Positions 1 to 16,302 of a stretch of DNA of 16,302 bases are shown here, in pieces; position 1 is the stretch's first letter; the number at the start of each line of letters is the position of its first letter. Both the position numbers and the translations under genes were made by a program. The DNA comes from an uncultured archaeon (GTDB lineage Archaea > Asgardarchaeota > Thorarchaeia > Thorarchaeales > Thorarchaeaceae). The notes under the pieces were generated by a model, which did no database searches, was not told the origin of the DNA, and was given only the letters and a program-made list of their open reading frames with translations. Location: NCBI GenBank assembly GCA_964590575.1, contig CAZPWM010000072.1:1-16302 (forward strand), given 5' to 3'.

Positions 1-1
1 G

Positions 2-3000
2 GATAAATAGTGTATTAATCTTGGAAACAATCCCGGTCATCGTGATAGTTGGTAGATTCAGGTAGTATGGTGAAGATCCATCCCATCCCACATCAAGATT
101 GAATAGAAATGTTCCAGGAGCGAGCAAGGCAGTCGAATCAATCTGAATCGTATATAGTCCTGTTCCCTTTATAACGATGAAATCGACTCCTTCAACAAGA
201 CCACCACTCTTGAGATCAAAGGATATCAATGCATCATTCACAGGGTTCGCCGAGGTTGCGTCTAGTAACGTAAAGGAGAGATTGAGTAGTTCACCAAAGG
301 CAGTTTCTTCAGCGGATAAGACGGTATATGACATGGTTCGAGCTCTAGTTGTAACCCGTACTATTGTTGAGTCATCAAAGTAATAGGGAGCTGTCCCATC
401 ATTCCAGTCTACATATACAGTCACATTGTAGCTACTTACTAATCCAACACTAAGTACCGTTGAATTGATATTCACTGTGAATGTACCCGCTATTCCAGCA
501 AGGGCATACTGACCAAGTGTGAGAAGAACGCCACCAGCCCAAATTTGGATATCCGAAGCAGAAATTGTACTAATCACTGATCCAAGTCCGAGGTCTCTAA
601 ACACAAACTGGAAGGTAACATTGTCAAGATACCTTGCTTGAGTAGGCGGAGTTGTTATCTCAACATTAGCTTCTCGTTTCGTCACATAAACATGGACATC
701 TAAGTTTGCGTTGTCGTGATATGGAGCCCCGCTCAACCAAGTAGCACGAATCTGTACAGTGTTGTAAGCAAGTCCATCTAATGCAGTTGTATCTAGAGAA
801 ACCAAGTAGACCCCGTTTCCTTGAGGTGTAAGGACATAATCAACACCGTCAGTAAGTGGAGTTACTCCCTTGTAGATAGCAATACTGTCAGCTGCTATTC
901 CGTATCCACTATCTGAGTCGAGATACTGAACTCGGAAAATAGCATCCTCTAGATAGGGTGTTGGATCTGGAGATTCAACCAAAATAACATCAGATGCACG
1001 GTTTCTCAGTTCGAAGAATATGTATGTGTCATCAGAATCGAAGAACGGAGACTGAGCATCATAAGAAGCCTCAATGTGGAGGTTGTAGAGCACTCCTATG
1101 GTGAGAATATGATTGTATGTTTCTACTGTCAGTTCATAATATTGGAATGCAGGCTTCCATTCAATTGTGAAGAACCAGCTTGACCCATTTAGAATGGTCA
1201 ATGTCACGAGCGAAGAGTCATTACCAATCGTATCAAGTGTGAGTCTATCTTGGAAATCGAGTATGTAAACAAGAGAGGAATTATATGGAGCAGGTCCTAT
1301 GGGTTCAGCGGAAAGTAGCGTAGGTCTGTAGAGCACCTTCAGAGTGCGCGTCGAAACAGCATCATTGATGTAGAAAAAGCCTGTTGAAAGTTCGATTCTT
1401 AGATTATAATCTCCAGGATTTGTATAGTATGTTGTATTGAGTTCGACCTCATACAGACCAGTACCTAAATCCCGTACAGTGTAGTAAGTTTCTGGAATCA
1501 CGAATATCGTGTTATAGAGTGTAATCGTCGCCCCTTCAATTCCTCTTGTTGCTGCACCTGCCATATCTGTCCATTCGAGAGTGATTGTCACGTTGTTGGT
1601 ATATGATGTCGGTGCTGGTGATTGGTAGTCGAGAACCGTCTGTCGTGTGGTGACCGTGATATAGACCGTATGTCCAGTCCGGTTGTTGTAGTAAGGTGCA
1701 CCTGCCCAAGTGACACTAAGAGTGAATGATTTTTGGCCTAAGGGTGCTCCGAATTGGGTTGTATTGAAGGAAACCGCAAATGTGTGTGACCCACCAATCC
1801 ATGTGAGTGTGTAATCAGCTAAACTCAAACTCACTGACATTTTTAGATCGTCATCAATCGGCACACTTGCACCACCAGTCACGTCTTCAAATGTGAAGGA
1901 GAAGGTGGCGTTCTCACCATAAGCCTGAGGAGTTGGGGGTACAACAGATAGAACAGTGTCACGTGGCAGGACCCGTACAGAGAGGACATCAAATCGATTG
2001 GTGTAGAATGGAGCCACACCAGCCGTCCAATTGATATAGACATTCATATAGATGAGTCCGGTCCTACCAAATATTGTGGTGCTGAACGAAACCGAATAAT
2101 TACCAGGTTGAAGGGCGGGGTTAATCTCTGCAATTGTCACTAAGCCAAGGTCAACGTTTTCACCTTGGAAACTGACGTAGATGTGGACATTACCAGTTGT
2201 ATTTGTGATGCCGATTCCACTTGTTTCAGCATAATTGAAGATGTAAAGCATAGAATCGAGATATGGAGTTGGTTCTGATGACTGTAGTAATGTGAGTTGA
2301 GAGTCAACACCGATAATGTTTCCGGATGCAGCGGTCGATTTGTTCTCATATTGTTGAACTGGACCAACCCAATCGAAGTATATTATAAAGTTCTGAACAC
2401 CCTGTCCGAATATCGTCGCATCAATCTGAAGGGTATAGAAACCACTTCCATCATTGACTAAGGTGTGAGAAATCCAGTGTGTCTGGTTCCAGATACGAGA
2501 GAGAATATTGCTGTCATCAGTGATGCCAACTTTACCATCCCAGTCGTAGTATCGCAATGAGATATTGACAATTCCGTTGTATGGAGTTGGTTCAATTGCA
2601 CTCACCAAGTTGAAAATGGTCACATGGCTACGCACAATGACTTCAATTTCACAATAGCCATCATAGTAATTACCACTACCCTCATCAAAGTTGAACCAAA
2701 CAATGTATGTCCCCAATGCATCAGAACCAGTAGTTGTGAATGATATCTGCCAAGTCGTTCCGGTCCATGTGACAACCACATTCGGTTGAGTGGTCCAATT
2801 GTGTGTCACAGTTGCAGAACTGATCGGTACACCATTGTCAAGGTCATTGAAATCAATGGAGAATATCTTAGTACTACCAACTGGCATGTCCAAAGAGATG
2901 AGAGATGGTTCTGCATCTGTGTGAATCTGAGTGATTACGACTGTGATTCTAACAGTACGAGAGTCATAACCAGCTGCGTTGGCATCTAGATCAATTAGAT

Positions 3001-4756
3001 GAATTCCTATCGCGAGACCACTCACATCAATAATCACATCGTAATATCCTCCGCCAGTATGTGTTGGAGTGACTGGTGCATCCACTGATGTAATGACCCC
3101 GATGGTTATACCGAGGGCACGGTCGAGATCCTCATAGAAGAGGACAATCGTCACATCATGTTCGTATGGTGTGGAAACAGTGTACAGGTTAGCTGTCAAG
3201 TCACTCCTAGTTGGACGGTAGTTGAATGTAATCACGAGTTGAGTTGATGCATAGTTTGGATTGGAAGGATTCACATAAACAGTGATTGTATATGTTCCCT
3301 CTGGGAAGAATGAAGCTGCTATCGTTAGATTGTATATTCCAAGTCCAAAGTCGTTAATGGTTATCGGATAGGAATAAGTTCCATTGCTAACTGAAAAGTC
3401 AGCAGCAAGTCCAGTGATGAAGTCACCATAATTAGGACCTATCTCACTCACATTCAAACGAAGTGCAATATAGAAATCATCCCCATTTGGAAAGATTAAA
3501 TCACTTGGTTCATTATAGAGGTAGGTAGCCATGCTTCTGACTCTGACTTGAAAGTTGTAGTTTGATGGATTAAGGCAGTTTGACGAGCCAAGCATTGTCA
3601 CTGCGAGAGTCACTGATTCAACTCCTATAGCCCATGAATCAGTACCTGTTGGTAACAGCACATCGAGATTTGTAAAGGGAGATGAGACTGAGTAGAGTGG
3701 GTAGCTTGAAGTGAATTGTAGACTGCTAATATGAGAAGCTGCTACTATTCCCCCTGTGTCAAGATCGGTTATTACTACCGTTATTGATGTGTTATTCCCA
3801 TAAGGAGTGACTAGATTTCCTATGACTGTCGCAGATGTGTAGTGGTTTCTGATAGTCACTTGGAAATCATAGGAATTCGGAGCATAGTAATCTGAGCTCG
3901 ACATACTCACAGTGAGTGTGATATCCTCTACAGCAACACTCCAAGTGTTAGTGACTAGCGTTGGGTTAAAGGTCCCAAATACTTGCGAACCATAACTGGA
4001 GGGAGCGAAAGTTATGGATGCAACATTGCTGATGTCAACAAACCCTCCTGTATCAAGATCAATAAGAACCACAGTTGGGTATGTATTGAAACCTGCAGGA
4101 GTTACAAGATCACCGGTAACTGAAGCTGCTATATAGTGAGGTCGAAGGATGAATGCGATTTCCACACTTGCCATTTCAAGAAGAGTACCGGGTTTTGTCG
4201 CATTGAAGATGTACGAATACGCACCTACAGAGAAACCGGCGGTAGGAAGTGAAATATTATAATGGCCATTCGCTGCAGCAACCGGAGTTACTAGAGTACC
4301 ATTTGCGAAAGTAATAGTTGCACCAGTAATCGGGCTACCGTCAAAAGTATCAGTATAGACCAATGTAGCTGTAAAATCAAATCCGGTTGGTGTTGAGTCA
4401 ACGTTTGTAGAACCTAAAGTAGTATCATGGCTCAAATCAATATACAAAATTGTTGACGCATCTGTGTAGTAAGGATGACTTGATTGAATATCGAGCCTCC
4501 ATCTGATGTTGTTCTCCAAGTGAGATGTATTTAGAACAAGCCCATACAGTCCCCCACCTTCATAATGAAACTGGAGATTTGTACCGGAGTCATAGATAGT
4601 CCAATTTGTTGAAACAGAAGCTCCTCCCACACCTGAGCTTGTGAAGTCATCTGTCAGTTCAACTTGTACATAGAGGGATTCACCAATTGTAGTAGCAGTG
4701 ATGCTGTCACCAACTGCATCAGTTGGAGCTGTAAGACTCAATGAAGATGCTTGTTG
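2..4756 (-). repeat. 15 complete Ig-like repeats plus the start of a 16th in gene B
   Basis: Same pattern (e.g. RNHYTSATVIGNLVTPYGNNT, PRDTVLSVVPPTPQAYGENA, KREANVEITTPPTQARYLDNV), matching repeats 1-15 of gene A in order. Confidence 0.8.
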
Positions 4757-6694
4757 AATAGTGAAGGTTCGCTCATACATACCAACGCGGAAATTAACAG
4801 AACTTCCAGAGTCATTGTAGTACGCTGTAGCAATCCAAGATCCAGCAAGAGCTGTAGCATCCACTGTCTTTTTGATTTGAGAATCAGGAGAAACTCGTTC
4901 AATTTCTGAACCTATTGAGTAGAAAGTTGATGGGCTGTTTAGATTCCCGAACTCAGCTGCACGCCATGCTGTCGATCTACCGTTGGCTGTAGAAAAAGAT
5001 GATGCAACACGAACCTCATCCATTACACCATCAAACCATGCTAGGTTCCCGGTCACCTGATCAATCAATCCGCCCCCGATTTCCAAATCTGCGGCGAATG
5101 AAAGATCAGCATAAGTTATCCCTCCAGAGGTCCCACCCGTATCCACAATATTGTTGATCTGTATTCGATTTAGTGACGGATCACTAGCATCCATGAAGCA
5201 AGAGAAATAGTACCACACACCAGCAGACCAGCTAGTTTGGCTGGTCCACTTGTACATTTGACCACTGGCGCCATTCTCCGTCTTAAAGACCAAACTTCCA
5301 TCAGCAGTTGCATCGTTTGAATATACAGTAGAACCAGTTCCAACGAGCGCTATGTGCATATCATTATCGCCATCCAAAAACTTACTAAAGAGAACCTTAG
5401 TTGTTGTTGAAGACGGAGTATGAGCCACATCTAGTTTGAACCAACCTGATATCTCAACATCACCATTGGGTTCGAGAGATTCAGATGCAGATATGACAAC
5501 TTGGTCATTTGAACCATCAAAGTGTTGTCCGGAACCAACCCTACCAGTATCATCATAGTTACCACTTTGAGTTCCATCATAACTACCTGCAGTTGAATCA
5601 TAATGAATTGTTGTTGATTGCCCAGCAGTAGCATCCTCACCAAGATGCCAGACAGCAGCAAAGCTCTGAGTCCATACATCATCAGGGTTTTCCATATTTT
5701 CGAGAAGAGGATTTCCATAGTACATACTGATGACGGTATTAGTAGAACCAGTGAGGTTTGTCTTCACCCATGCAACTAAATGACCTGTTGCTTGATTGAA
5801 GAGTTCTATCTCGTGTGACAATATCTTCCCAGCTGAAACAAACAGAATATCATCTCCGTCACTCTGTACATCTGTCTGAAAGTCGGAAGTAGTGATGTCA
5901 ATTAGTACAGGAAAGTTGTTCACGTTGGTAGCTAGATGCTTTGTTCTATCAATAGTGATGATCTTCTTGTATTGGAATGATTGCAAGAGATGCGTTGGAA
6001 TACCAGTTGTTGTATTGGAAGCAGAATACCACTCAGAACCAGTTGGGTCAGTCAAAACAAATTCAGTTGATGCGCCAGTAATCCAACTACTTGTACTGCG
6101 AAATAGCATTTCATCACTTAGACCAAAGGTAGATGTTGTTGATAGTGGTCCAGTACTTGGTCCTAGTTCAAGATCAAATAGATGATTGATTGCACTAAAT
6201 TCGAGCTTCCAAATTCCATAAGTTGTAATTGCAGATTCACTGACATACACAAGTCCAGCTTCAAACCACCAATCAGTCGGATTTGTCTGTTCAACTCCAA
6301 TTGGGTTGGTTAGTGACACAGGAGCCCACTCCGTTTCGTTATAGTCCACTGTAAAACTAAATGTATCAATCTCTGAAGGTGGAGAAACAAGAATGTATGC
6401 TGTCCACGTAACTGTGCTTGAGTTTGACACCTCAAAGGAGGTGCCTGATGTGAAATCTGAGGAGAGAGTTGTGGTTGTATCAGTCCAACTCGAGCTGTTC
6501 ACGAATGTACCAAAAAAGGAAACAGTAAGAGGAGAGCCTTTACCGACATAAGTGCCGCCTGCCTCTGAAATCTGATTTTGGTTGTTCAGGTAATATTCCC
6601 TGTCGGTTGCTTGGGAACCGTTTCCTGACAGGTCTACAAGACTGAACATGAATAGCATGATAAATATTAGAGAAAGAACACTGCTTTTCCTCAT
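2..6694 (-). CDS. Gene B: giant secreted/surface protein, colinear paralog of gene A (signal peptide, DUF2341 + LamG-like head, at least 15 Ig-like repeats); 3'-partial
   Basis: Manual translation from ATG at 6694 gives MRKSSVLSLIFIMLFMFSLVDLSGNGSQATDREYYLNN...FQYKKIITID...NFPVLIDIT...WVKTNLTG...MYYGNP...VWHLGE and ends at the window edge with ...GWDGSSPYYLNLPTITMTGIVSKINTLFI. The frame is the same at both ends and no stop was found. An in-frame TAA lies 26 codons upstream of the ATG. Absent from the ORF track because it has no stop inside the window. Confidence 0.93.
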   Translation of the reverse strand, partial: MRKSSVLSLIFIMLFMFSLVDLSGNGSQATDREYYLNNQNQISEAGGTYVGKGSPLTVSFFGTFVNSSSWTDTTTTLSSDFTSGTSFEVSNSSTVTWTAYILVSPPSEIDTFSFTVDYNETEWAPVSLTNPIGVEQTNPTDWWFEAGLVYVSESAITTYGIWKLEFSAINHLFDLELGPSTGPLSTTSTFGLSDEMLFRSTSSWITGASTEFVLTDPTGSEWYSASNTTTGIPTHLLQSFQYKKIITIDRTKHLATNVNNFPVLIDITTSDFQTDVQSDGDDILFVSAGKILSHEIELFNQATGHLVAWVKTNLTGSTNTVISMYYGNPLLENMENPDDVWTQSFAAVWHLGEDATAGQSTTIHYDSTAGSYDGTQSGNYDDTGRVGSGQHFDGSNDQVVISASESLEPNGDVEISGWFKLDVAHTPSSTTTKVLFSKFLDGDNDMHIALVGTGSTVYSNDATADGSLVFKTENGASGQMYKWTSQTSWSAGVWYYFSCFMDASDPSLNRIQINNIVDTGGTSGGITYADLSFAADLEIGGGLIDQVTGNLAWFDGVMDEVRVASSFSTANGRSTAWRAAEFGNLNSPSTFYSIGSEIERVSPDSQIKKTVDATALAGSWIATAYYNDSGSSVNFRVGMYERTFTIQQASSLSLTAPTDAVGDSITATTIGESLYVQVELTDDFTSSGVGGASVSTNWTIYDSGTNLQFHYEGGGLYGLVLNTSHLENNIRWRLDIQSSHPYYTDASTILYIDLSHDTTLGSTNVDSTPTGFDFTATLVYTDTFDGSPITGATITFANGTLVTPVAAANGHYNISLPTAGFSVGAYSYIFNATKPGTLLEMASVEIAFILRPHYIAASVTGDLVTPAGFNTYPTVVLIDLDTGGFVDISNVASITFAPSSYGSQVFGTFNPTLVTNTWSVAVEDITLTVSMSSSDYYAPNSYDFQVTIRNHYTSATVIGNLVTPYGNNTSITVVITDLDTGGIVAASHISSLQFTSSYPLYSVSSPFTNLDVLLPTGTDSWAIGVESVTLAVTMLGSSNCLNPSNYNFQVRVRSMATYLYNEPSDLIFPNGDDFYIALRLNVSEIGPNYGDFITGLAADFSVSNGTYSYPITINDFGLGIYNLTIAASFFPEGTYTITVYVNPSNPNYASTQLVITFNYRPTRSDLTANLYTVSTPYEHDVTIVLFYEDLDRALGITIGVITSVDAPVTPTHTGGGYYDVIIDVSGLAIGIHLIDLDANAAGYDSRTVRITVVITQIHTDAEPSLISLDMPVGSTKIFSIDFNDLDNGVPISSATVTHNWTTQPNVVVTWTGTTWQISFTTTGSDALGTYIVWFNFDEGSGNYYDGYCEIEVIVRSHVTIFNLVSAIEPTPYNGIVNISLRYYDWDGKVGITDDSNILSRIWNQTHWISHTLVNDGSGFYTLQIDATIFGQGVQNFIIYFDWVGPVQQYENKSTAASGNIIGVDSQLTLLQSSEPTPYLDSMLYIFNYAETSGIGITNTTGNVHIYVSFQGENVDLGLVTIAEINPALQPGNYSVSFSTTIFGRTGLIYMNVYINWTAGVAPFYTNRFDVLSVRVLPRDTVLSVVPPTPQAYGENATFSFTFEDVTGGASVPIDDDLKMSVSLSLADYTLTWIGGSHTFAVSFNTTQFGAPLGQKSFTLSVTWAGAPYYNNRTGHTVYITVTTRQTVLDYQSPAPTSYTNNVTITLEWTDMAGAATRGIEGATITLYNTIFVIPETYYTVRDLGTGLYEVELNTTYYTNPGDYNLRIELSTGFFYINDAVSTRTLKVLYRPTLLSAEPIGPAPYNSSLVYILDFQDRLTLDTIGNDSSLVTLTILNGSSWFFTIEWKPAFQYYELTVETYNHILTIGVLYNLHIEASYDAQSPFFDSDDTYIFFELRNRASDVILVESPDPTPYLEDAIFRVQYLDSDSGYGIAADSIAIYKGVTPLTDGVDYVLTPQGNGVYLVSLDTTALDGLAYNTVQIRATWLSGAPYHDNANLDVHVYVTKREANVEITTPPTQARYLDNVTFQFVFRDLGLGSVISTISASDIQIWAGGVLLTLGQYALAGIAGTFTVNINSTVLSVGLVSSYNVTVYVDWNDGTAPYYFDDSTIVRVTTRARTMSYTVLSAEETAFGELLNLSFTLLDATSANPVNDALISFDLKSGGLVEGVDFIVIKGTGLYTIQIDSTALLAPGTFLFNLDVGWDGSSPYYLNLPTITMTGIVSKINTLFI
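4940..5660 (-). other. LamG/concanavalin A-like jellyroll domain in gene B
   Basis: VWHLGE...DSTAGSYDG...FDGSNDQV...ISGWFK...VWYYFSC...EIGGG...WFDGVMDEVRVAS. Confidence 0.85.
5684..5977 (-). other. DUF2341-like domain in gene B
   Basis: FQYKKIITID...NFPVLIDI...SDGDDILF...LSHEIELF...AWVKTNL...ISMYYGNP. Confidence 0.8.
6608..6694 (-). other. Sec-type signal peptide (or N-terminal anchor) of gene B
   Basis: MRK basic n-region, hydrophobic SVLSLIFIMLFMFSLV h-region, polar DLSGNGSQA c-region with a possible S-Q-A cleavage site. No twin-Arg motif and no lipobox Cys. Confidence 0.75.
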
Positions 6695-6700
6695 ACTCGG

Positions 6701-6706
6701 CACCTT
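6701..6706 (-). promoter_or_regulatory. Putative Shine-Dalgarno for gene B
   Basis: Minus strand reads AAGGTG-CCGAGT-ATG: an AGGTG core matching the GGAGGTGA consensus, 6 nt before the start codon. Confidence 0.55.
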
Positions 6707-6781
6707 CGAAAGTCGACTTAGAGCGACCCACCATCTCCTCAATGGCAAGTCCACTGCTGGAGTTTCAGATTATTTGTTCCC

Positions 6782-6796
6782 TATATCAATTCATGT
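6782..6796 (-). promoter_or_regulatory. Possible archaeal BRE/TATA promoter for gene B
   Basis: Minus strand ACATGAA-TTGATATA-GG, an imperfect TTTATATA-like box with purines upstream, about 90 nt before the ATG. Weak match. Confidence 0.25.
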
Positions 6797-6804
6797 CGTG
6801 TGAA

Positions 6805-6868
6805 TTCTCTCCCTCTTTCATCGGAGCGGTCTTTTTTTCGACATGAAAGAAAATAGAGAAGGAACCAG
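6805..6868 (-). terminator. Pyrimidine-rich tract and imperfect hairpin directly after the gene A stop (terminator or mRNA stability/processing element)
   Basis: Minus strand TTCCTTCTCTATTTTCTTTC lies ~12 nt after TAG. Arm 6839-6860 pairs with arm 6805-6823 (about 19 bp including 3 G-U, with two small bulges). Confidence 0.45.
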
Positions 6869-6876
6869 GAGGATAC

Positions 6877-9800
6877 CTAGCCCTTCTTGCCTTCTAAGCT
6901 CTTAACGAGCTCATCAACGAGTTCACGCGGTAGTTCCTTCGCTTGCTCAATGATTGTGTCAATCTCATGAGGAGGTACACCCTTACGTTCAAGATCACGT
7001 CGGAGTTCCTCAAGCTCGTAGAGATTCATCTTGTCAGATGGTGTTACAGCTTCTTCTTCTTCGTAGATATCCTTCTCAACCGGAGTGACGTCTTTTGTAG
7101 GAATAGGAGTGGCGTTCTCCTCTTCCTCAAGGAATACTCGTTCTTCAGGAGCTGGAGTAACGACTTCGATTGGTTTTACTCCCTCATCTCCACCAAGACG
7201 CCGCGCAGCTTCCTTTTCAATAACTGCGAGTGTCTCTTCTATTGTCCTACCATCACGACGGGCTGCGCGAATAGCCTCCTGCATTATGACCTCTTTCACG
7301 AATGCAGCCTGTTCACTCATTTTCATCTTGGCAATATCAGCCTGGAACTCGTCAAGCTCATCAGGACTGAGATTAGTAAGGATTGCGAGCTGCATGAGGA
7401 GCTCGCCCATTTCTGGAACCTCAATAGGTATGGGGTCTTCTGGCATTTGAGCTGCTGTCCGAGTTATCTTCATTTTCTCATAGGTATCGTTGAAGAGCTC
7501 TGCTGCTAGTTGTTGCCGACTCTTGACATCGCGTATTGGTTTGGGAACCTTGCCCTTACGAAGAGTCTTTAGTTGGCTGTTAATTTGACGGATTCTCTTT
7601 GGAACACTCCAGACTTTCACATAAGCTCCGAGTAATACGATAATGAAGATACTAATCGGAAGACCATAAAGCGTTATGTTTGAAACTAGTTTATCGAAAT
7701 CGCTAGCCTGCGTGGTTATTCTAAGGATAATACTAGCATCATCATGGAAGTCCCTACTCATTGTTATTCGAATAGCAGGTTGTCCATTATACCCCACAGC
7801 AAGAATCACTATCCTATAGTGACCGTTGCCAAGAGAGTAATTGTTGTCTATTTTGACAGTGTCTCCAGCGATGATATAGAACGAAGCGCCATCAACACCC
7901 CTGTTATGCCACGTGTCGTTGAGATAGAAATCAAAGACAATACTCTCACCATTTATGAGTGCATACGGAATCTCAATATCTGGGTCTGCAAGTTGGCCAT
8001 CGTGTAAGATTCTCGTGGGTGTATATATGATCCGGATTCGGATTTCTCGTGTCTGCAATTGCCTATTTTCGTCAAAGATTTCTATCCTAAATCTGAAGTA
8101 TTCGCCTTCTAGAATGACAGGATATCCATATAGGTCATATAACACAGGATTATTTGTATCAAAGGTGAAATTATAGTAACCAAATCCTTCTCGAAATAGT
8201 ATTGGCGTATAATTAGAGAAATATGCTGGAGCTCTCAACACTGTGAACTCTGAGAAGTTCGCGCCAGTAATTCCGCCAAATAAACCACCAATTGAACTGG
8301 TATCATTATAGAACAACGATATATTAATTGCATCGCCCATTGTTAATTCGAGATAAATTATTCCTGATTCAATTGAATAAAAATTCTGGTCAGGGTATTC
8401 AATGATTAATTCTGTAGGTCTCTCAAGTATATGAATAAAGTAGCTACGTGACTGGGTTTCATAGTTGGGAAGGAAGAATAGAGTGGAGATTCTTTCTCTA
8501 ATATTAGAATCCAGTAGTGTTGTATCTATATAGAGTGTATATGTTCCATTTCCTAGGTCTGTAGCATTGAAATCTAGGTTGCCATAGCTATAGGTAACTG
8601 TTGCACCACGTACAAACCTCGTGTTGTAGGTATCAGTGTAGTTTAGGGAGATGGTCCCAGTCCAACCCCATACCAAGTCTATAGTTTCGGTAGGACCTTC
8701 AATATCTGTTGGAACATTCTTAATTGTTAGAGTCATACTTGTTAAGGTATCAGCAAGAGTTGTATTAGTTGGGTATCCATAGAACGACGCTCCCACTGTA
8801 CCAAATCCCAAGATTGATGTATTGAATGTCAGTGTCCAGATGCCATTGCCCATCGATGTGAAGTTAAGGTAGATATTGCGAGTGTTGTCTCTCCAAGAAA
8901 CTTCGCCATTATCGACTTCCATAAAGAATGAAACTGTACTAGACGTTGTGAAATTAAGGTGCAATGTGACATTCTGGAGGTAATATACCTCAAGTTTCGT
9001 AGGATCCGGAAGACCAGTCACACGGAGCTGCGTTGGAGTTTGTGTGATATATATCTTGAACTGATCAACAGCTGGATCGTAGTTGTTGAAGCTAGCGAAG
9101 ATTTGCACATCATATGATAGCAATGCTTCTAGGATAGTCGCAGTTCCAGGTATTGTAACACTCCATCGTCCAGTAAAGACGCTATAAATCATGTAGTACT
9201 TAACACTACTCAATCTTGCATAGACTTGGAGCTGTCCTGATTCATTTCGAACTTGTGTATCATCAATCGATAGATCATAGTCAATATCATGGAGTTCCAC
9301 CTCAATGAAGACTGAATCTCCTCTACCCACTTCTTTCACTATATCAGTGGGTTCGTGGATTATTATTTCGCTTGGAATCGTCAATACTACTAATGTTATT
9401 GTTGTAATTGCTGTTGTGTACTTGTCCTTTGTAGCTGTAATAGTAGCAACAAATGTTCCTGCTGTAAATGAGCTAGTATCAATTGTTGCGTTATAACGTC
9501 CAGGAGTACCAACAGCTGTCAGAGAACCGCCAAACGCCTCCGAGGACCAAGTTACACTATATGCACCGGAAATTGGAACTCCATTCAACAAATCGAGATA
9601 GTCCACTGAGATTATAGCGTTTCCCTTCCAGTACACTGTAACAGACGTATCTACTGGAGTTAGAACTGTGTTGATAGCTATCACGTTAAATTGTGGTGTC
9701 ACAGTCACTGATGCATATACCGAAACAGCTGCTACAATTCTTAGTGTGTAGGGTCCTAAGGTGGGTAAATCAGATGTACTGAAGGTAATATTATAGATTC

Positions 9801-12800
9801 CTGATGAAACATACTCGTAGACTACCAAGCTTGCAGGCCTTAACCCGCTTACGAGGTACTTAACATTTGAATCGACGATTGCGGCATACCCAGAGATTGG
9901 AAGACCATGATCAAGGTCCTTCCAAGTTACATTGAGTGAAACACTACCTGTGTATTGGACCGATGATGGAACCAGAGCATTGACCTGAAGAGAGGTTCGT
10001 ACCAAGTCAACTAGACCAGTCAAAGTTACCAAAGAACGGTTAGAATAGAATGGGGATAATGAGGGGTTCCACTGTACTTCAATATCAAAGAAGAACGTAC
10101 CAGTCCCAGTCAATGACAAGGTGTCGACATTGAAAGAATAAGTTCCTGACCCCTCAGTCTTGGTATAGTCAACTCCTTCTATTAAGAAATGACCCTGACA
10201 GCTGAATTGTATTATTGCACCTGCAATTGGACTACCACTATCAAGGTCAGAAAGGTTGACTGTAATGTTGAGAACATCACCTTTTGGAGTTCTATCAATT
10301 TGGTCTGTTTCAACAAGAATAGAACGTCCTGTTATTGTCACCTTGACAATAGTGAAATCATCTGCATAGTATGGTGCTTGTGCAGCAGGCCAGTCCACTA
10401 CGACCCTGATTGATAGACCAATCACAGACATATTAGAAATAATTGTTGATGAGATTGTAGTCTCATATGTGCCACTGTTTAGAATAATGGTGTAATCCAA
10501 CTGGTTGATTTCAGTCATATTTGGCCAGTACAAATGGATCAATGATAGATCAGCTAATGAAATGGATGTACCTGCGTCGAGGTCATTATACTCAAACTCA
10601 AAGGTCACATCATCCAAGTACAATGTCTGTGCTGGAGGTATAGTGATTCCTAAATTGGTTTCTCTTTGTCGAATCAGAACATTGACGAGTTGAGTTGCAC
10701 TTTCATGATAAGGCACACCGGTCCTGCTTGCCTGAATCTCAAGCGCGTGAACTCCAAGACCACCAAGGGCAGTTGAATCGATGACAATAGTGTAATAACC
10801 AGGACCTCCTTCAGTCACTGTGTAGTGAGTATTTTCAACAAGAGGAATAGAATTATTCAATACAATGATTTGAGCTCCATCGATTCCAGCTCCGCTAGCG
10901 TCATCATCACTAAAGAATAGGGTGAATGTAGCATCATCAAGATATGGCGTGGTTTCGGGTTCGGTATCGAGTGCCAGAGAAGAATCTCTAATTACTATCT
11001 TGAAAGTGCTTGATACTTGACCGCTCTGATAGAACGGTGCTTGATATGCGTAGCTCATCCTTATTGTGAAGGAGTGTTGAGTACCTGGTGCCCAAATGAC
11101 TGGATCCCAGCTTTGATTCCATGCAATGATTAGTTCATAGTTTTGACTGAGCGCGCTCCAGGCTGAAGTGAAAACCGCACCGGAGGGAGACAATATCTCG
11201 ATTGTAACAGGGTATCCATGCGCTGAATCATTTGCTATCGATTGTGTAGTGAATTGGTCCAAATAGCTCAAAATGATCCTGATTGAGGAATTATATGGCA
11301 CATCAACCACTGGATTTACTGCAACTATTGTGAAGCGCTCAAGGATTGAAAAAGCCCGATCGACTATCTTGTCTGGTATATAGATTAGTCCGATAGAAAT
11401 CTGCACTCTTAGCGTCTTGATCCCTGGTGTAGTTGTGTAGGTTGTGTTAAGAGTGACTTGATAAATGCCAGGAGCTATCTCAAAATAGTTATACTCAGCG
11501 GAGTCTATAGAGAACAAACCTTCTCTCAACACAAGAGTTGCTGAAGTTATCGGGACAGAAGCGCCACCTGTCGTGTCAGTCCAAGTCACATTGAAAATAA
11601 CTTGGTCCCCATATTGTGTTGGTGGAGGAGTGAGATATTCCAGTGAGGTTTCTCTCACTATAACGTTGATGTAGGTAATACGACCAGTTCGATTGGCATA
11701 GAAGGGAATTCCAACCCATGTCACATCAACAAGTATTGCTTTCAGTCCTAGACTGCCAAACTGACCTGTGTTGAATGAGATGCTGTAAGTTCCAGCAACC
11801 TCTACGAGAGAGAAGGAAATGTTTAGTGATATTTCTTGCTTGGAAAGACCAGTTATGAATGAACTACCTGTGATGTCCTCAAAGGTTAATGTAATGGTTG
11901 CATTCTCATTGTAACTTGTCGATGATGCAGGCGTGATTGAGAGAAGAGTATCTCTTGGTAGAACCCTGATTGAAACTACATCAGTTCTGTTAGAATAGAA
12001 GGGTGAAACACCTTTTGACCAGTTAACGAACACATTCATGTAGAACAGTCCGGTCCGACTGAAAATACCAGTATCAAATTGGATAGCGTATTGTCCAGGC
12101 AGAGTAGCAGAATAATCCAAGATTATGATATCTGATGGATTGACTGGTTCACCTTGGAAACTGACATAGATGAATACATTTCCTGTGAGGTTAGCAATTC
12201 CGGTTCCCGAATCACTGTAAAAGAAGGTGTACGCCATATTCTCATCATAGGGTGTTGGTTCGGAACCAACTAGAAGTGTGAGTGATGAATCCTTTCCAAC
12301 AACGAGTGCAGTAGTTACAAATGCCTTGTCCTGATATTTAGTAACAGCTCCTGTCCAATCTGCGTAAACAGTAAATGTCTGAAAGCCTAAACCAAATTGA
12401 GAAGCTGACACAGAAATGATGTAATAACCATCGCCAAGAAACAAGTCATAGTCATAGCTTGAGATTACTGGTCCAGAATCATTCGATACCGAGAATAACA
12501 CCAGGGAGGATTTGATGCCAACTGCACTATCAAGATCTCCGTAGTAAACTGAGATGTTGAACGTGCCACTCGTACTGGTTGGTTCAATTGAGCTTACTAT
12601 TCTGAATTCTGTATTATGTGTACGGATAGTTACTACGACGTTGAAACTGACAGTTTGATAATTGCCGCCTTTTGAGAACTCAAAGTTGTAAACAATATTC
12701 GAGGAAATGGTGTCAGAATCAGAGGTGTGGAATGTAATCTTGTATTTCTGAAGTCCCGGCATGTATTCAACTGAGAAGTTATGCCACGTTGAAACAACCT

Positions 12801-15800
12801 GAGTATATGGTGAGGTGCTATTATCGATAGGTATGAGTCGATCAATATCTGAATAATCGACATAAAAGATGGGGGAATTTCCAATCGGGATTACCAATGA
12901 ACTCAACGAGGGTATTACAGAAGTATATGCTTGGCGAATTACTAATCTGAACTCAAGGGTTCTTCCAGAAATGCCTGATTTGTCTGCCGTAAGGTTCAGG
13001 TAGTAGATTCCTTGGGTCAATGTTGAAACATCAATCCATACCTCATAGATACCTCCGCCCACGTCACTCCAGTTGGCAATCCAAGTAGGATGATCTGGAG
13101 AGGATATTACAGCTCCAGCTATGCCAGAACCAAAATCGATGTCAGTGTAGTTGAGAATGATTTTAACATCTAGTTGATAGGGAGTTGTTACCTGGGGATG
13201 ATTTGGAGAGGTCAGAGTACTGTCCACCTCTCGATAGAAGAATCGTATCACAAGGAAAGTATTCCCATACTCACTATTTGCAGAGGTGAAATAGACGATG
13301 ATTTCGTATGGCCCACCAGTAAAGTATGATTCACTAATGGTCAACTTGTATCTACCAATCGCTTGTTCTGCTGTGTCTATAACAATTACATACCCCGGTA
13401 CAGAGAACTCTCCTGCAATCCTACCTGTTATGGGATCACCATAGTTTGGCCCAATTTCACTCACATTTAGACGGAGGTAAACCTCCAAGTCAGAGCCAAG
13501 TGGGAAGTTCAATGTAGATGGGTCGTGATACATCACGGATGACATACTTCGAATCGTTATAGAGAACTGATAGCTTGAGGGATTACTATAGATAGTTCCA
13601 CCTATTGTCACAATGACACTAACTGAATGTGTTCCCACAGACCATGTGCTTGTATCCAATGTGATTATGTAGCTGCCACTAGAATCATAGATCCCAAATG
13701 GGTGTTGTAGTCTGATGTTTGATACAGAGCCAATTGGTACAATACTACCATTTTCTAAATCTGTCAGGATTATATTCAGCGTAGTCTGATTACCATATGG
13801 TTTTGTAGTGACGCCGGTCACAGACACTGAAGTTCTATGAGACAAAATCTGGATGTTGAACACATATGGAATAGGTGCTTGAATCTTGGTGTTCGACATT
13901 GTGATTGTTAGGGTGGCTGTAACACTACCCACACTCCAATCAGCAGTTGTCAGGGTAGCAGAGTAGGTCCCAAATGCATCAGCCCCATAACCGCCAGTAT
14001 AAGTGAAGGTCAGAGTACCTACATCAGAGATACCAACTGCAAGACCTGTGTCCAAGTCGAATAGGAAGACAGTGACTTGTGTATCTTCTCCATATGGTGT
14101 AGTCATATCTCCAGTTACAGTGGCTGAAGTACGATGGGCACGGAGCGTGAAAGTAACATCCACTTGTGCTACATGTAGGAACCCGCCCGGTGCCGTTGCA
14201 TTGAAAGTGTAAGGATGAGAACCAAGACCTAGAGAATTTGTTAGAATAGCAATGTCGTATGTACCATCACCATTGTCAGTGACAAAATCGATGGGATTTC
14301 CATCTGAGTAAGTGATTGTGGCCCCGGTAATTGGAGCGCTTGTATATTGATCTCTGAAGGTCAAGGTAGTAGTGAAGTTGAAGTCAGCAGGAGTAGCGGA
14401 TACACCAGAGGCCTGCAGTTGAGTGGAGTGGTAGAGGTCCACTTTGAAGTACTCTGTTGCATTGTTGTAATATTGGTGATATGACTGGATATTAATTCGC
14501 CATTGCTTATTGTCCCCAAGGCCTGTTGTGGACAATACCTTTCCATAGATTCCTCCACCGTAGTCATTGAGTGTGATCGTGGATGGAGCTGTCCAGTTCA
14601 TGGTGACTGTTGCACCAGGTATTCCCTGAGCTGTGATATCATCGTTGAGCTCATACTCAACAATGAGTGAATCTCCAACAGTTTTAACCGAGAGTCGGTC
14701 TCCAACAGCGTCAGAGGGTTCAGTGAGTGTCAAAGTGGTGGGGTGACGGACAATGAAAGTCCGCTCGAAGAGACCTGTCTTGTTTGTGACTGAGCTACCA
14801 GTATCATTATAATATGCTATTGCGGTCCATAGACCAGCAGGAGCTGAAGAGTCAATAGTCTTCGTAAGGGTGTGCTCTGGTGAGGTTCGCACTTGCTCGG
14901 ATCCGGGACTTAGGAAAATATCAGCGTCTCTGTAGTTATGCTCCTCGTTCTTAAGCCACGTATCAGTCCTGAGTGTGTTTGAAACTGTAAACTCATCAAG
15001 TCGACCAGCAAAATACCCAGACCCTTCATAACTCGTTTCATAATCCCCGCCACCTAATTTCCACTCTTCAATGTATGATACATTCGCTTGAGTAGCACTA
15101 CCAACGAATCCTGCGTCAGTGTTCCAATTCGTGTCAACCCAGATTTTGTTGTTTGAGGGCGTATCTTCATCCGCATAACAGGCTATGAAATACCATTGGT
15201 TTGCGTTCCAGGTTATCTTCTGAGTCCATTTGTAAATAGGATCATTTTGTGAACTCTCAACCTTGAAAACAAGTGTGCCATTTGGCACTGTCCCTTGCGT
15301 ATAATCTTGGCCAACTAATGCTATGACCATATCATGGTCGATATCGATATACTTCTCCATGATTACCTTTGTAGTTGGTGAGGATGAGGAATGAGGAGAA
15401 GAGAGCTTGAACCAGCCAGTTATCAACACGTCATTCTGAGGAGCTAAGGTTTTATCAAATGAGATGTAGTCGTTGCTTCCATCAAATAGTTGACTATACC
15501 CAGCACCATCAAAGACATCTGTGTTTCCATTACGAACTCCGTCGTATCCGTTTCCTGTTGAGTCGAAGTGTATGTCACCACCGATAACGAGGTCCTCTTC
15601 ATTCAAATGCCATACAGCCTCATAATTATTAGACCACACACCCGCGGGATTTTCAAGATTGTCAACAATGGGAGAACCATAGTACATAGTGATTGTGTTA
15701 TCGACTCCATGAGTCAGGTTGGTCTTAACCCATGTGGTAAGATACGCCGTATTGATTGAATAGGATTGGTCGAAGTATTCAATCTGATGATCGAGAATTT

Positions 15801-16302
15801 TATCTCCGACTGCAAATAGAATATCAGATGCATCTGCTCGAACCTTACTCGTGTCGAATAAATCAGTATCTTCAAACTGAATAAGTACAGGGAAGTTGAC
15901 AAGATTCTCGGACCCAAAGATTTCAGCAGAAGGTATTGTAATGTCTTTTCGGTAACTGAATGATGGAAACTTATGATCAGGATCAGTCCCAGTTGTTTGA
16001 TTGTAGGCTGAATACCATATATTACCATCGGGCTGGACTAGGTCCAATCCAACACGTGCTCCAATTACTGTAGGGGTAGTCATTGTGAATTTCGCTGTGT
16101 CATTGATGTTGAATGCAGTATTATCTATCTGGAGGTCTTGCATAAAGTTCCAGCTGATGAACTTGAGAGTCCATACACCCCAGAAGTCAATCGATGATGC
16201 ATTTAGAGTCAGAGTTCCACCATGATACCACCAGTCTTGGTCAACGGTCTTTGGTTGGTTCAATGGATTGAGAACCTTGGTTGCTTTCCATTCAGCTCGA
16301 GG
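6877..16302 (-). CDS. Gene A: giant type I membrane surface protein (DUF2341 + LamG-like head, ~22 Ig-like repeats, C-terminal TM helix, cytoplasmic tail); 5'-partial
   Basis: 3128-aa ORF in the track with TAG stop at 6877-6879. The track's TTG start at 16263 is probably not the true start: the frame stays open to 16302 (PRAEWKATKVLNPLNQPKTVDQDWW), and this extension aligns with gene B (NETEWAPVSLTNPIGVEQTNPTDWW). Thr/Ser/Tyr-rich, nearly Cys-free, many N-x-S/T sequons. Confidence 0.95.
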   Translation of the reverse strand, partial: PRAEWKATKVLNPLNQPKTVDQDWWYHGGTLTLNASSIDFWGVWTLKFISWNFMQDLQIDNTAFNINDTAKFTMTTPTVIGARVGLDLVQPDGNIWYSAYNQTTGTDPDHKFPSFSYRKDITIPSAEIFGSENLVNFPVLIQFEDTDLFDTSKVRADASDILFAVGDKILDHQIEYFDQSYSINTAYLTTWVKTNLTHGVDNTITMYYGSPIVDNLENPAGVWSNNYEAVWHLNEEDLVIGGDIHFDSTGNGYDGVRNGNTDVFDGAGYSQLFDGSNDYISFDKTLAPQNDVLITGWFKLSSPHSSSSPTTKVIMEKYIDIDHDMVIALVGQDYTQGTVPNGTLVFKVESSQNDPIYKWTQKITWNANQWYFIACYADEDTPSNNKIWVDTNWNTDAGFVGSATQANVSYIEEWKLGGGDYETSYEGSGYFAGRLDEFTVSNTLRTDTWLKNEEHNYRDADIFLSPGSEQVRTSPEHTLTKTIDSSAPAGLWTAIAYYNDTGSSVTNKTGLFERTFIVRHPTTLTLTEPSDAVGDRLSVKTVGDSLIVEYELNDDITAQGIPGATVTMNWTAPSTITLNDYGGGIYGKVLSTTGLGDNKQWRINIQSYHQYYNNATEYFKVDLYHSTQLQASGVSATPADFNFTTTLTFRDQYTSAPITGATITYSDGNPIDFVTDNGDGTYDIAILTNSLGLGSHPYTFNATAPGGFLHVAQVDVTFTLRAHRTSATVTGDMTTPYGEDTQVTVFLFDLDTGLAVGISDVGTLTFTYTGGYGADAFGTYSATLTTADWSVGSVTATLTITMSNTKIQAPIPYVFNIQILSHRTSVSVTGVTTKPYGNQTTLNIILTDLENGSIVPIGSVSNIRLQHPFGIYDSSGSYIITLDTSTWSVGTHSVSVIVTIGGTIYSNPSSYQFSITIRSMSSVMYHDPSTLNFPLGSDLEVYLRLNVSEIGPNYGDPITGRIAGEFSVPGYVIVIDTAEQAIGRYKLTISESYFTGGPYEIIVYFTSANSEYGNTFLVIRFFYREVDSTLTSPNHPQVTTPYQLDVKIILNYTDIDFGSGIAGAVISSPDHPTWIANWSDVGGGIYEVWIDVSTLTQGIYYLNLTADKSGISGRTLEFRLVIRQAYTSVIPSLSSLVIPIGNSPIFYVDYSDIDRLIPIDNSTSPYTQVVSTWHNFSVEYMPGLQKYKITFHTSDSDTISSNIVYNFEFSKGGNYQTVSFNVVVTIRTHNTEFRIVSSIEPTSTSGTFNISVYYGDLDSAVGIKSSLVLFSVSNDSGPVISSYDYDLFLGDGYYIISVSASQFGLGFQTFTVYADWTGAVTKYQDKAFVTTALVVGKDSSLTLLVGSEPTPYDENMAYTFFYSDSGTGIANLTGNVFIYVSFQGEPVNPSDIIILDYSATLPGQYAIQFDTGIFSRTGLFYMNVFVNWSKGVSPFYSNRTDVVSIRVLPRDTLLSITPASSTSYNENATITLTFEDITGSSFITGLSKQEISLNISFSLVEVAGTYSISFNTGQFGSLGLKAILVDVTWVGIPFYANRTGRITYINVIVRETSLEYLTPPPTQYGDQVIFNVTWTDTTGGASVPITSATLVLREGLFSIDSAEYNYFEIAPGIYQVTLNTTYTTTPGIKTLRVQISIGLIYIPDKIVDRAFSILERFTIVAVNPVVDVPYNSSIRIILSYLDQFTTQSIANDSAHGYPVTIEILSPSGAVFTSAWSALSQNYELIIAWNQSWDPVIWAPGTQHSFTIRMSYAYQAPFYQSGQVSSTFKIVIRDSSLALDTEPETTPYLDDATFTLFFSDDDASGAGIDGAQIIVLNNSIPLVENTHYTVTEGGPGYYTIVIDSTALGGLGVHALEIQASRTGVPYHESATQLVNVLIRQRETNLGITIPPAQTLYLDDVTFEFEYNDLDAGTSISLADLSLIHLYWPNMTEINQLDYTIILNSGTYETTISSTIISNMSVIGLSIRVVVDWPAAQAPYYADDFTIVKVTITGRSILVETDQIDRTPKGDVLNITVNLSDLDSGSPIAGAIIQFSCQGHFLIEGVDYTKTEGSGTYSFNVDTLSLTGTGTFFFDIEVQWNPSLSPFYSNRSLVTLTGLVDLVRTSLQVNALVPSSVQYTGSVSLNVTWKDLDHGLPISGYAAIVDSNVKYLVSGLRPASLVVYEYVSSGIYNITFSTSDLPTLGPYTLRIVAAVSVYASVTVTPQFNVIAINTVLTPVDTSVTVYWKGNAIISVDYLDLLNGVPISGAYSVTWSSEAFGGSLTAVGTPGRYNATIDTSSFTAGTFVATITATKDKYTTAITTITLVVLTIPSEIIIHEPTDIVKEVGRGDSVFIEVELHDIDYDLSIDDTQVRNESGQLQVYARLSSVKYYMIYSVFTGRWSVTIPGTATILEALLSYDVQIFASFNNYDPAVDQFKIYITQTPTQLRVTGLPDPTKLEVYYLQNVTLHLNFTTSSTVSFFMEVDNGEVSWRDNTRNIYLNFTSMGNGIWTLTFNTSILGFGTVGASFYGYPTNTTLADTLTSMTLTIKNVPTDIEGPTETIDLVWGWTGTISLNYTDTYNTRFVRGATVTYSYGNLDFNATDLGNGTYTLYIDTTLLDSNIRERISTLFFLPNYETQSRSYFIHILERPTELIIEYPDQNFYSIESGIIYLELTMGDAINISLFYNDTSSIGGLFGGITGANFSEFTVLRAPAYFSNYTPILFREGFGYYNFTFDTNNPVLYDLYGYPVILEGEYFRFRIEIFDENRQLQTREIRIRIIYTPTRILHDGQLADPDIEIPYALINGESIVFDFYLNDTWHNRGVDGASFYIIAGDTVKIDNNYSLGNGHYRIVILAVGYNGQPAIRITMSRDFHDDASIILRITTQASDFDKLVSNITLYGLPISIFIIVLLGAYVKVWSVPKRIRQINSQLKTLRKGKVPKPIRDVKSRQQLAAELFNDTYEKMKITRTAAQMPEDPIPIEVPEMGELLMQLAILTNLSPDELDEFQADIAKMKMSEQAAFVKEVIMQEAIRAARRDGRTIEETLAVIEKEAARRLGGDEGVKPIEVVTPAPEERVFLEEEENATPIPTKDVTPVEKDIYEEEEAVTPSDKMNLYELEELRRDLERKGVPPHEIDTIIEQAKELPRELVDELVKSLEGKKG
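6880..7608 (-). other. ~243-aa cytoplasmic tail of gene A
   Basis: Composition switches from beta-rich T/S/Y/V to E/K/R/L/M-rich helical sequence, with an acidic Pro/Thr linker and a terminal helical module. Confidence 0.8.
7609..7677 (-). other. C-terminal transmembrane helix of gene A
   Basis: ITLYGLPISIFIIVLLGAYVKVW followed by the basic segment PKRIRQINSQLKTLRKGKVPKPIR (positive-inside rule implies a cytoplasmic C-terminus). Confidence 0.88.
7711..14748 (-). repeat. About 22 tandem divergent Ig-like repeats (protein level, average ~107 aa) in gene A
   Basis: Recurring pattern R.T.L....(P)TPY.D.V.F...Y.D.D.G..I.GA.I....G.G.Y.I.IDT..L..G.Y.L.I...V.I. Counted by eye from RHPTTL to YTPTRI. 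Not visible as DNA repeats. Confidence 0.8.
14932..15630 (-). other. LamG/concanavalin A-like jellyroll domain in gene A
   Basis: VWHLNE...DSTGNGYDG...FDGSNDYI...ITGWFK...QWYFIAC...KLGG...YFAGRLDEFTVSNTLRT follows the typical Laminin_G_3 motif order. Confidence 0.85.
15646..15960 (-). other. DUF2341-like domain in gene A
   Basis: YRKDITI...NFPVLI...ADASDILF...LDHQIEYF...TWVK...TITMYYGSP matches the remembered DUF2341 pattern (DI.F...L.++IE.+....+WVK......I.+YYG). Confidence 0.8.

Follow-up and report, generated by a model that had tools for sequence, protein, structure and literature searches.

The window analysed here is one entire 16.3-kb contig of a Thorarchaeia metagenome-assembled genome (MAG; 194 contigs, 3.4 Mb; G000), and its open reading frame (ORF) list contains two long frames, genes A and B, which are co-oriented on the minus strand (Table 1). 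The stop of A and the ATG of B are 182 bp apart, as stated in the preliminary description of this DNA, which had been made from the letters and the ORF list; an in-frame GTG lies upstream of the ATG, at 6754. By BLASTP the two products are 40% identical over 2,149 columns with 4% gaps (E = 0), and an alignment of the in-window parts pairs 2,060 residues colinearly at 42% identity. Over these residues the offset between equivalent positions is 9,959–10,019 nt, in agreement with the 9960–10015 nt and the colinearity given earlier, and the arithmetic of repeats 1–15 (1581 aa in A, 10006–14748; 1578 aa in B, 23–4756) holds as well, corresponding to residues 1471–3051 of the completed A protein (A_full) and 672–2249 of the completed B protein (B_full). 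Judged by its nucleotide divergence, the duplication that gave A and B is old, as the many synonymous differences had suggested: nucleotide identity is 51%, the longest identical run is 18 nt, every 150-nt segment is at most 65% identical, and the same codon is used at only 35% of the 833 residues that are identical in A and B (M and W excluded).

Both genes run off the window. Retrieving flanking sequence, a check proposed in the preliminary description, allowed us to complete them from two other contigs of the same MAG: the end of C129 overlaps the A end of the window at 55/55 nt and carries the first ~952 aa of A, and the start of C1 overlaps the B end at 96/107 nt and carries the remaining ~930 aa of B. 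Once joined, A has a stop-to-stop frame of 4,093 aa and B one of 3,181 aa (~3,156 aa if counted from its ATG), and the scaffold reads ThiI, DUF2334, A, B, a Rad51/RadB-like gene, an AAA (Orc-like) gene and an FAD-linked oxidase. This join is validated by three genomes that have the same gene order on uninterrupted contigs, G001 (4,105 + 3,171 aa), G014 (4,086 + 3,187 aa) and G241, which belongs to another genus (4,162 + 3,181 aa). The break of the contig within B falls at a site of strain-level variation: the 107-nt overlap between window positions 1–107 and C1:1–107 contains 11 mismatches. Variant sites are also clustered within the window in DNA runs X1, X2 and X6, for example at 9143–9281 and 10668–10746, and several related strains seem, from these sites, to have been present in the source communities.

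Completion overturned the claim that A and B are length-matched. The proteins measure ~4,090 aa and ~3,160 aa, A having an extra head and an extra stalk repeat, and in a global alignment they differ by ~910 aa, of which ~812 are extra N-terminal residues of A and 109 form a single insertion in A. This insertion (A_full 3051/B_full 2249) is one whole repeat and starts immediately after B has run off the window; the apparent length matching is thus a truncation effect, which arises because the contig ends where it does. The exciting claim, length matching as evidence for a heterodimer, therefore stems from the position of a contig end. The difference in length and by one repeat is stable across species.

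Completed A and B are type I membrane proteins with a signal peptide, a head, a long stalk, a single C-terminal transmembrane (TM) helix and a cytoplasmic tail of ~245 aa. Each has 52–67 N-glycosylation sequons and an isoelectric point of ~4.3. They belong to a family of six paralogs in this genome, which form three tandem pairs (A/B, C13_1/C13_2 and C26_1/C26_2, the latter two on contigs C13 and C26) and occupy 1.9% of the genome.

Table 1. Features of the A/B window and the two further tandem pairs of the genome. Positions are those of the window unless a contig is named; L numbers denote loci, pLDDT is the predicted local distance difference test score, AF2 is AlphaFold2 and HMM is hidden Markov model.
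Feature	Position	Strand	Basis or content
Gene A, in-window part	6877..16302	-	16302..6880 = 3,141 aa; stop 6877–6879; 5' end open
A membrane-proximal head module, second of two	14872..16302	-	DUF2341-like + LamG-like; aligns to B residues 140–630
A stalk	7699..14871	-	22 HMM-detected repeats + one weak membrane-proximal immunoglobulin (Ig)-like repeat, ~105 aa each
A-specific extra repeat, rank 17	9562..10005	-	alignment gap ~9679–10005, HMM repeat ~9562–9804; no partner in B
A transmembrane helix	7609..7677	-	hydrophobic segment before juxtamembrane motif; AF2 continuous helix, residues 2–48
A basic juxtamembrane motif, WSVPKR...KGK(I/V)PKP	7537..7608	-	invariant or near-invariant columns in 46 tails
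A cytoplasmic helical domain, ~110 aa, KMKxSEQ..FVKEVIxQE	7195..7518	-	AF2 pLDDT mostly >90
A acidic linker, predicted disordered	7039..7185	-	pLDDT <50 at model residues 173–221; length varies among paralogs
A C-terminal three-helix module, ELEELR..KG....EI..I..QAK.LPR.L..EL..SL	6883..7023	-	AF2 helices 227–239, 244–256, 259–273, pLDDT ~90
A-B spacer	6695..6876	-	alignment of 12 species, five conserved elements
Gene B, in-window part	2..6694	-	2,231 aa from ATG at 6694; leaves window at base 2
B signal peptide	6617..6694	-	hydrophobic N-terminus; AF2 helix 6–19, then low-confidence linker
B N-terminal beta-sandwich region	6005..6553	-	AF2 model residues 48–230, all-beta
B DUF2341 domain	5672..5860	-	PF10102, 30.3–30.7 bits vs cutoff 23.4, residues 299–361 of the B sequence P0002
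B ConA-like/LamG-like jelly-roll domain	4928..5668	-	model residues 343–589; putative ligand/glycan-binding head
B stalk repeats 1–16 (of 22)	2..4873	-	repeat HMM; positional identity to A repeats 1–16
C13_1/C13_2 pair (L013, L014)	C13:15330-42802		5,180 + 3,979 aa
C26_1/C26_2 pair (L015, L016)	C26:14874-30478		2,619 + 2,605 aa

A head module consists of a beta-sandwich, a DUF2341 domain and a ConA/LamG-like jelly roll, and is present twice in A and once in B. We modelled B residues 1–795 with AF2 from a 30-sequence alignment (mean pLDDT 81.7) and compared the jelly roll with 48,161 chains using VIA-align. The best match was domain 4 of AbnA, which is arabinan-binding (5hon_B; Z 18.9, root-mean-square deviation (rmsd) 2.5 over 188 residues), and further matches at Z 12–17 included the lectin-like subdomains of clostridial neurotoxin binding domains, laminin G/neurexin LNS domains (Z 12–14), CBM40 and pentraxins. 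The distal head of A, on C129, matches Pfam Laminin_G_3 (PF13385) with a score of 64.3 bits (cutoff 27.6), and the head is duplicated inside A, where A_full 533–701 resembles 1059–1236. In the in-window head of A, Pfam returned no DUF2341 match although the region aligns to the head of B, and NCBIfam gave nothing meaningful on either protein. Complement C3/C4/C5 and alpha-2-macroglobulin, the top Foldseek rows for the 795-residue head model, were discarded as generic beta-sandwich arrays (TM-score ~0.1, rmsd >30).

Stalk repeats were called with an HMM built from these proteins, which, with the weak membrane-proximal repeat of A added, gave totals of 23 Ig-like repeats in A and 22 in B, close to the ~22 Ig domains of the preliminary description. 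For each of A repeats 1–16, the closest B repeat is the one of equal rank, with 35–56% identity versus ~17–22% to other B repeats, so that the closeness of each repeat to its positional counterpart, noted from the letters, is now quantified for 16 repeats. Within A, repeats share a mean of 20% identity with one another and neighbours a mean of 23%. Because repeats within one protein are only ~20% identical, unequal crossing-over would have no substrate. The first B repeats were modelled as beta-sandwiches (AF2 residues 600–760). On distant proteins that share the tail, the Invasin_D3 score is 33.1–38.6 bits over the whole protein (cutoff 33), where no individual stretch passes on its own, and Big_1/Big_3_5-type matches occur likewise on distant family members.

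Is the strict register of A and B a sign that they pair? Comparisons between paralogs point elsewhere: stalk indels of 25 aa or longer are absent from the alignments of A with C13_2, C13_1 with C13_2 and C26_1 with C26_2 (35–40% identity), and the 109-aa gap of B, which makes B one repeat shorter than the other three long paralogs (A, C13_1 and C13_2), is the sole stalk indel on the scale of a repeat. Judged by these alignments, the register is a family-wide property and the repeats are position-specific. The register needs no A-B pairing because each repeat position is separately conserved and because the same register is found between paralogs at different loci. Of the earlier proposal that selection acts on length through A-B pairing, the part on length agrees with the tight conservation of length within ortholog groups, and the part on pairing is not supported, since the register holds across loci. 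The span from the first repeat to the TM helix is 2,396–2,423 aa in A orthologs (n = 7) and 2,290–2,313 aa in B orthologs (n = 6), and the complete frame of B varies only between 3,141 and 3,192 aa across 14 genomes, which represent at least three genera. Among paralogs, the stalk spans 2,298–2,495 aa in the four long members and ~1,720–1,850 aa in the C26 pair, and repeat number differs between branches of the family, the C26 type having 16–17 and some genera 31 or more.

The cytoplasmic tail is alike in the six paralogs and in 46 aligned relatives (AF2 model, pLDDT 79.7). A and B carry its full architecture, with 58% identity between their tails and genome matches to the tail profile of 406 bits (A) and 391 bits (B), and in C13_2 the three-helix end module is present fourfold. 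Against 1.84 billion representatives, the profile matched only 154 proteins, always at the C-terminus. The tail resembles no known fold in the collections that we searched: Pfam returned sub-threshold rows only (RecX_HTH1, 16.8 bits versus 26), a sequence search of the PDB gave E >= 0.38, Foldseek gave a best E of 1.2, VIA-align a best Z of 6.0, which is within noise for helical models, and the ESM Atlas no usable match. SHOCT-like and MIM-like motifs in the tail were dropped for lack of support from any tool. Weaker and partial profile matches, covering the TM helix, juxtamembrane and helical parts, occur on large proteins in four other Asgard families. Proteins of these families that end in the TM and juxtamembrane parts, with or without the helical part, measure 700–4,500 aa; four genes with such tails are consecutive on one strand in G082:C15 (L100, L104), a closed 1.4-Mb genome has two carriers (868 and 701 aa), and G026:C1:244415-244612 (L101) is among these loci.

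Of 73 related loci, 60 carry titles of Thorarchaeota MAGs, 2 of Hermodarchaeota and 2 of 'Promethearchaeota', and the remaining 9 are listed simply as archaea. B-like matches were found in 22 of the 24 other genomes of the genus, and the tail profile matches 74 of 76 genomes of the same taxonomic family. In a tree of 52 sequences built on ~1,000 stalk columns that they share, A sequences and B sequences each form a clade with full support in the Shimodaira-Hasegawa-like approximate likelihood ratio test (SH-aLRT 100), and C13_1 and C13_2 are sisters (ultrafast bootstrap (UFboot) 100/SH-aLRT 99). The base of the tree lacks resolution, the common ancestor of A and B being the base of all 50 long-type rows, and a sister relationship of A and B was accordingly not adopted. 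An approximately unbiased (AU) test rejected a single 'upstream' clade of A and C13_1 (log-likelihood difference 148.7, p = 8e-45), a group that was named after the tree had been seen. Because C13_1 and C13_2 are sisters and the 'upstream' clade is rejected, we conclude that each pair had its own tandem duplication, unless the pairs were homogenised long ago, and that there is no ancient division into alpha and beta lineages.

The divergence of A and that of B are discordant in six species. Identity of the C-terminal ectodomain to that of the window's genome is 72% for A versus 45% for B at L026, and 38% for A versus 54% for B in G001 (L019, L020). The B clade itself comprises two deep subclades. 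Recombination or allele replacement affecting one gene of the pair is possible from these comparisons.

Like A and B, the other two pairs are tandem; in contrast to them, the stop and start codons of the C13 and C26 pairs overlap, by 1 nt (TAGTG) and 4 nt (ATGA), respectively. C13_1 contains about five DUF2341/LamG head modules, and its orthologs range from 4,655 to 6,555 aa. A divergent gene for a protein with a Ras-family GTPase domain (C13:13023-14333, minus strand) lies immediately upstream of the C13 giants, and ~6 kb beyond it lies a gene for a Vps4-like AAA ATPase (AAA, Vps4_C and a weak MIT match; C13:7694-8917, plus strand); this neighbourhood is listed as locus L097. Directly upstream of the C26 pair and on the same strand is a 721-aa gene (L096, C26:30649-32811), the product of which combines a signal peptide and a C-terminal TM helix with a tail that is basic and very short, and matches nothing in Pfam. 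It may be a third surface protein of the C26 cluster.

The 182-bp spacer between A and B has its own pattern of conservation. A T/C-rich tract follows the stop of A and precedes a conserved TCGAAAAA block; a near-invariant block resembling a transcription factor B recognition element and TATA box (BRE/TATA-like; TTGATATA) lies at ~6779–6797, 85–95 nt before the ATG of B; a hairpin at ~6722–6745 with a purine-rich GAGGAG loop has six predicted pairs, three of them with compensatory changes; and an invariant GGTGCC directly precedes the ATG. One terminator-like stem was found, at 6883–6862, versus 0.4 expected. From the conserved BRE/TATA-like block and its companions we infer that B has its own promoter, and the arrangement suggests a structured 5' untranslated region and separate control of B. 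A scan for sigma-70 promoters returned nothing, a model that does not apply to archaea. In one metatranscriptome library, six short contigs fall on the tail and stalk of A and on the 5' end of B; with DNA carry-over possible, we take them as a weak sign that A and B are expressed. No contig in this single RNA library bridges the spacer, and such contigs cannot show transcript ends.

What is the function of A and B? We favour, at a probability of roughly 0.55, that they are giant paralogous surface receptors or adhesins with lectin-like heads, diverged Ig-like stalks and a family-specific tail. The stalks, if extended, would carry the heads as far as ~90 nm out from the membrane, where each head would bind a glycan or another ligand on a partner or substrate, and the tail would couple the giant proteins to a cytoplasmic partner. 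An old tandem duplication would have given A and B, with later diversification mainly in the heads. Co-expression or mixed A-B oligomers are compatible with this proposal and are not required by it.

Several points weigh against the receptor or adhesin proposal: (i) fold and topology are the only basis for placing the proteins at the surface, for glycan binding by the heads and for the role given to the tail; (ii) the Ig-like fold was modelled for the first repeats only, and Pfam Ig families gave no match at threshold, nor at E <= 0.01, on A or B; (iii) the order A then B is kept in 11 of the 13 A-clade species with assessable downstream sequence and, with the same flanks, in a second genus (G241), which answers the question of synteny raised in the preliminary description in favour of the pair; and (iv) the overlapping codons of the other two pairs resemble operons of stoichiometric partners, as would fit hetero-oligomers evolved from homo-oligomers. 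Pair retention and the operon-like overlaps favour a possible A-B heteromer.

Such a heteromer, the two-subunit surface complex first proposed for this DNA, would place A and B side by side through the stalk, TM helix or tail, with the register reflecting matched geometry. We consider it a tentative alternative, with perhaps one chance in five. Beyond pair retention and the presence of three tandem pairs in one genome, two of them with overlapping codons, it is favoured by an A-minus-B stalk difference that stays constant at about one repeat across species and by the high similarity of the TM helix and tail. It has to contend, however, with completed proteins that differ by ~910 aa and one repeat, with a register that is equally strict between paralogs at different loci, with pairs that arose independently and lack alpha and beta subfamilies, with the promoter-like element of B and with the discordant divergence of A and B. 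Nor is B always found with A. At L025 and L035, A stands directly before the usual downstream genes without B, and a search of the 92%-complete genome of L025 turned up no full-length ortholog of B; G015 has a divergent gene upstream of B. The preliminary description had named single orthologs and variable repeat numbers as signs against a paired complex. Singles do occur, in 2 of 13 species and in a genome of a sister family, which has one single long-type gene (4,431 aa) with unrelated flanks, and repeat number varies from 16–17 to at least 31 across the family, whereas within orthologs length is stable.

It is similarly doubtful that the six members are primarily a main surface coat, a substitute for a surface layer (S-layer) or a canopy, in which stalk length would set the thickness of the coat and binding by the heads would be secondary. 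The share of the genome given to the family, its occurrence in 74/76 genomes of the taxonomic family, the similar stalk spans of the four long paralogs and the 48–76 N-glycosylation sequons per family protein would all suit a coat, and the cultured Lokiarchaeon L. ossiferum is described as having protruding surface proteins and no ordered S-layer (part of PMC9834061). Yet no lattice-forming domain was recognised, and stalk lengths differ between pairs, the C26 stalks being shorter, and between genera. To our knowledge, no S-layer anchor is known with a conserved cytoplasmic tail of 245 aa.

A more specific, and improbable, version of the receptor idea makes the tail an Asgard-specific docking module that couples receptors to the cytoskeleton, ESCRT (endosomal sorting complex required for transport) or small-GTPase machinery, the pairs being hetero-oligomers derived from homo-oligomers. 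If true, the archaeal relatives of eukaryotes would have independently gained an integrin-like system of outside-in adhesion.

That an aloposon-like mobile element carries the pair as cargo is very unlikely and largely refuted at this locus: the tandem frames of 4,093 and 3,181 aa do fall in the 3,000–6,000-aa range of Otus and Ephialtes, the mutually homologous tandem giants of Ca. Heimdallarchaeum aloposons, for which the part of PMC8813620 that treats these elements gives a downstream tRNA integration site and four consecutive upstream genes including a MinD/ParA-like ATPase, but ARAGORN found no tRNA gene in the window, in C129, in C1:1-6000 (3.1 kb past the stop of B) or on either side of the C13 pair (the downstream flank of C26 was not scanned), the upstream genes are ThiI and DUF2334 in place of that four-gene set, the flanks are the same in four genomes of two genera, and a pattern scan of IMG/VR found no relative.

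Tandem giant genes of Thorarchaeota are already in print: PMC8813620, in its passages on them, reports high homology between neighbours as well as distant homology. These pairs are very probably the same family as A/B or its sister, and the same passages give no domain anatomy, cytoplasmic tail or function. Among huge archaeal proteins, an N-terminal Laminin_G_3 domain followed by long repeats is reported as the commonest architecture, with a function that is not understood and with three examples in Thorarchaeota (PMC11573180, in the portion on architectures). Those proteins resemble A and B in having one or several N-terminal ConA-like domains before a very long repeat region; that portion of the survey, which is limited to proteins of at least 5,000 aa, treats neither pairing nor positional register nor a conserved tail.

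How do A and B compare with better-known surface proteins? An integrin-like family, fam15271, adjoins tubulin/FtsZ genes according to the section of PMC9258230 that describes it and was set aside, having no evident relation to the A/B locus. Integrins and cadherins share with A and B the type I topology, the large ectodomain, the lone TM helix and a tail in the cytoplasm that could reach intracellular partners, and the paired genes are of related size. Unlike them, A and B are chains that are paralogs of each other, and neither carries an FG-GAP propeller, a beta-I/vWA domain or a cadherin repeat (Pfam, E <= 0.01). Bacterial giant adhesins of the invasin/intimin and Bap/RTX types present, as A and B would, a distal ligand-binding, lectin-like domain on a long Ig-like rod. 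Their anchor is an outer-membrane barrel, a sortase linkage or a type I secretion plug, whereas A and B have a C-terminal TM helix and a large tail, and their repeats are near-identical and expandable, whereas those of A and B are diverged and position-specific. The two-component S-layer of Sulfolobales, SlaA/SlaB, shares with A/B the adjacency of genes for envelope proteins and C-terminal TM anchoring. SlaA and SlaB are unrelated in sequence and SlaB alone is anchored; A and B are paralogs that are both anchored and have long tails.

Full-text literature searches, which did not cover figures and supplements, returned no description of the family anatomy, of the cytoplasmic tail, of a register by position or of three pairs with independent origins. 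To the texts searched, this analysis adds an anatomy for the family, a tail of no known fold, position-specific and length-stable repeats, and three pairs that formed independently. The tail offers a handle for an intracellular partner, and the heads offer one for glycan ligands. Cultured Asgard archaea have no ordered S-layer and bear protruding surface proteins, which the part of PMC9834061 that deals with them proposes to mediate cell-cell contacts relevant to eukaryogenesis. The genes of the A/B family are candidates for such protruding structures in Thorarchaeia.

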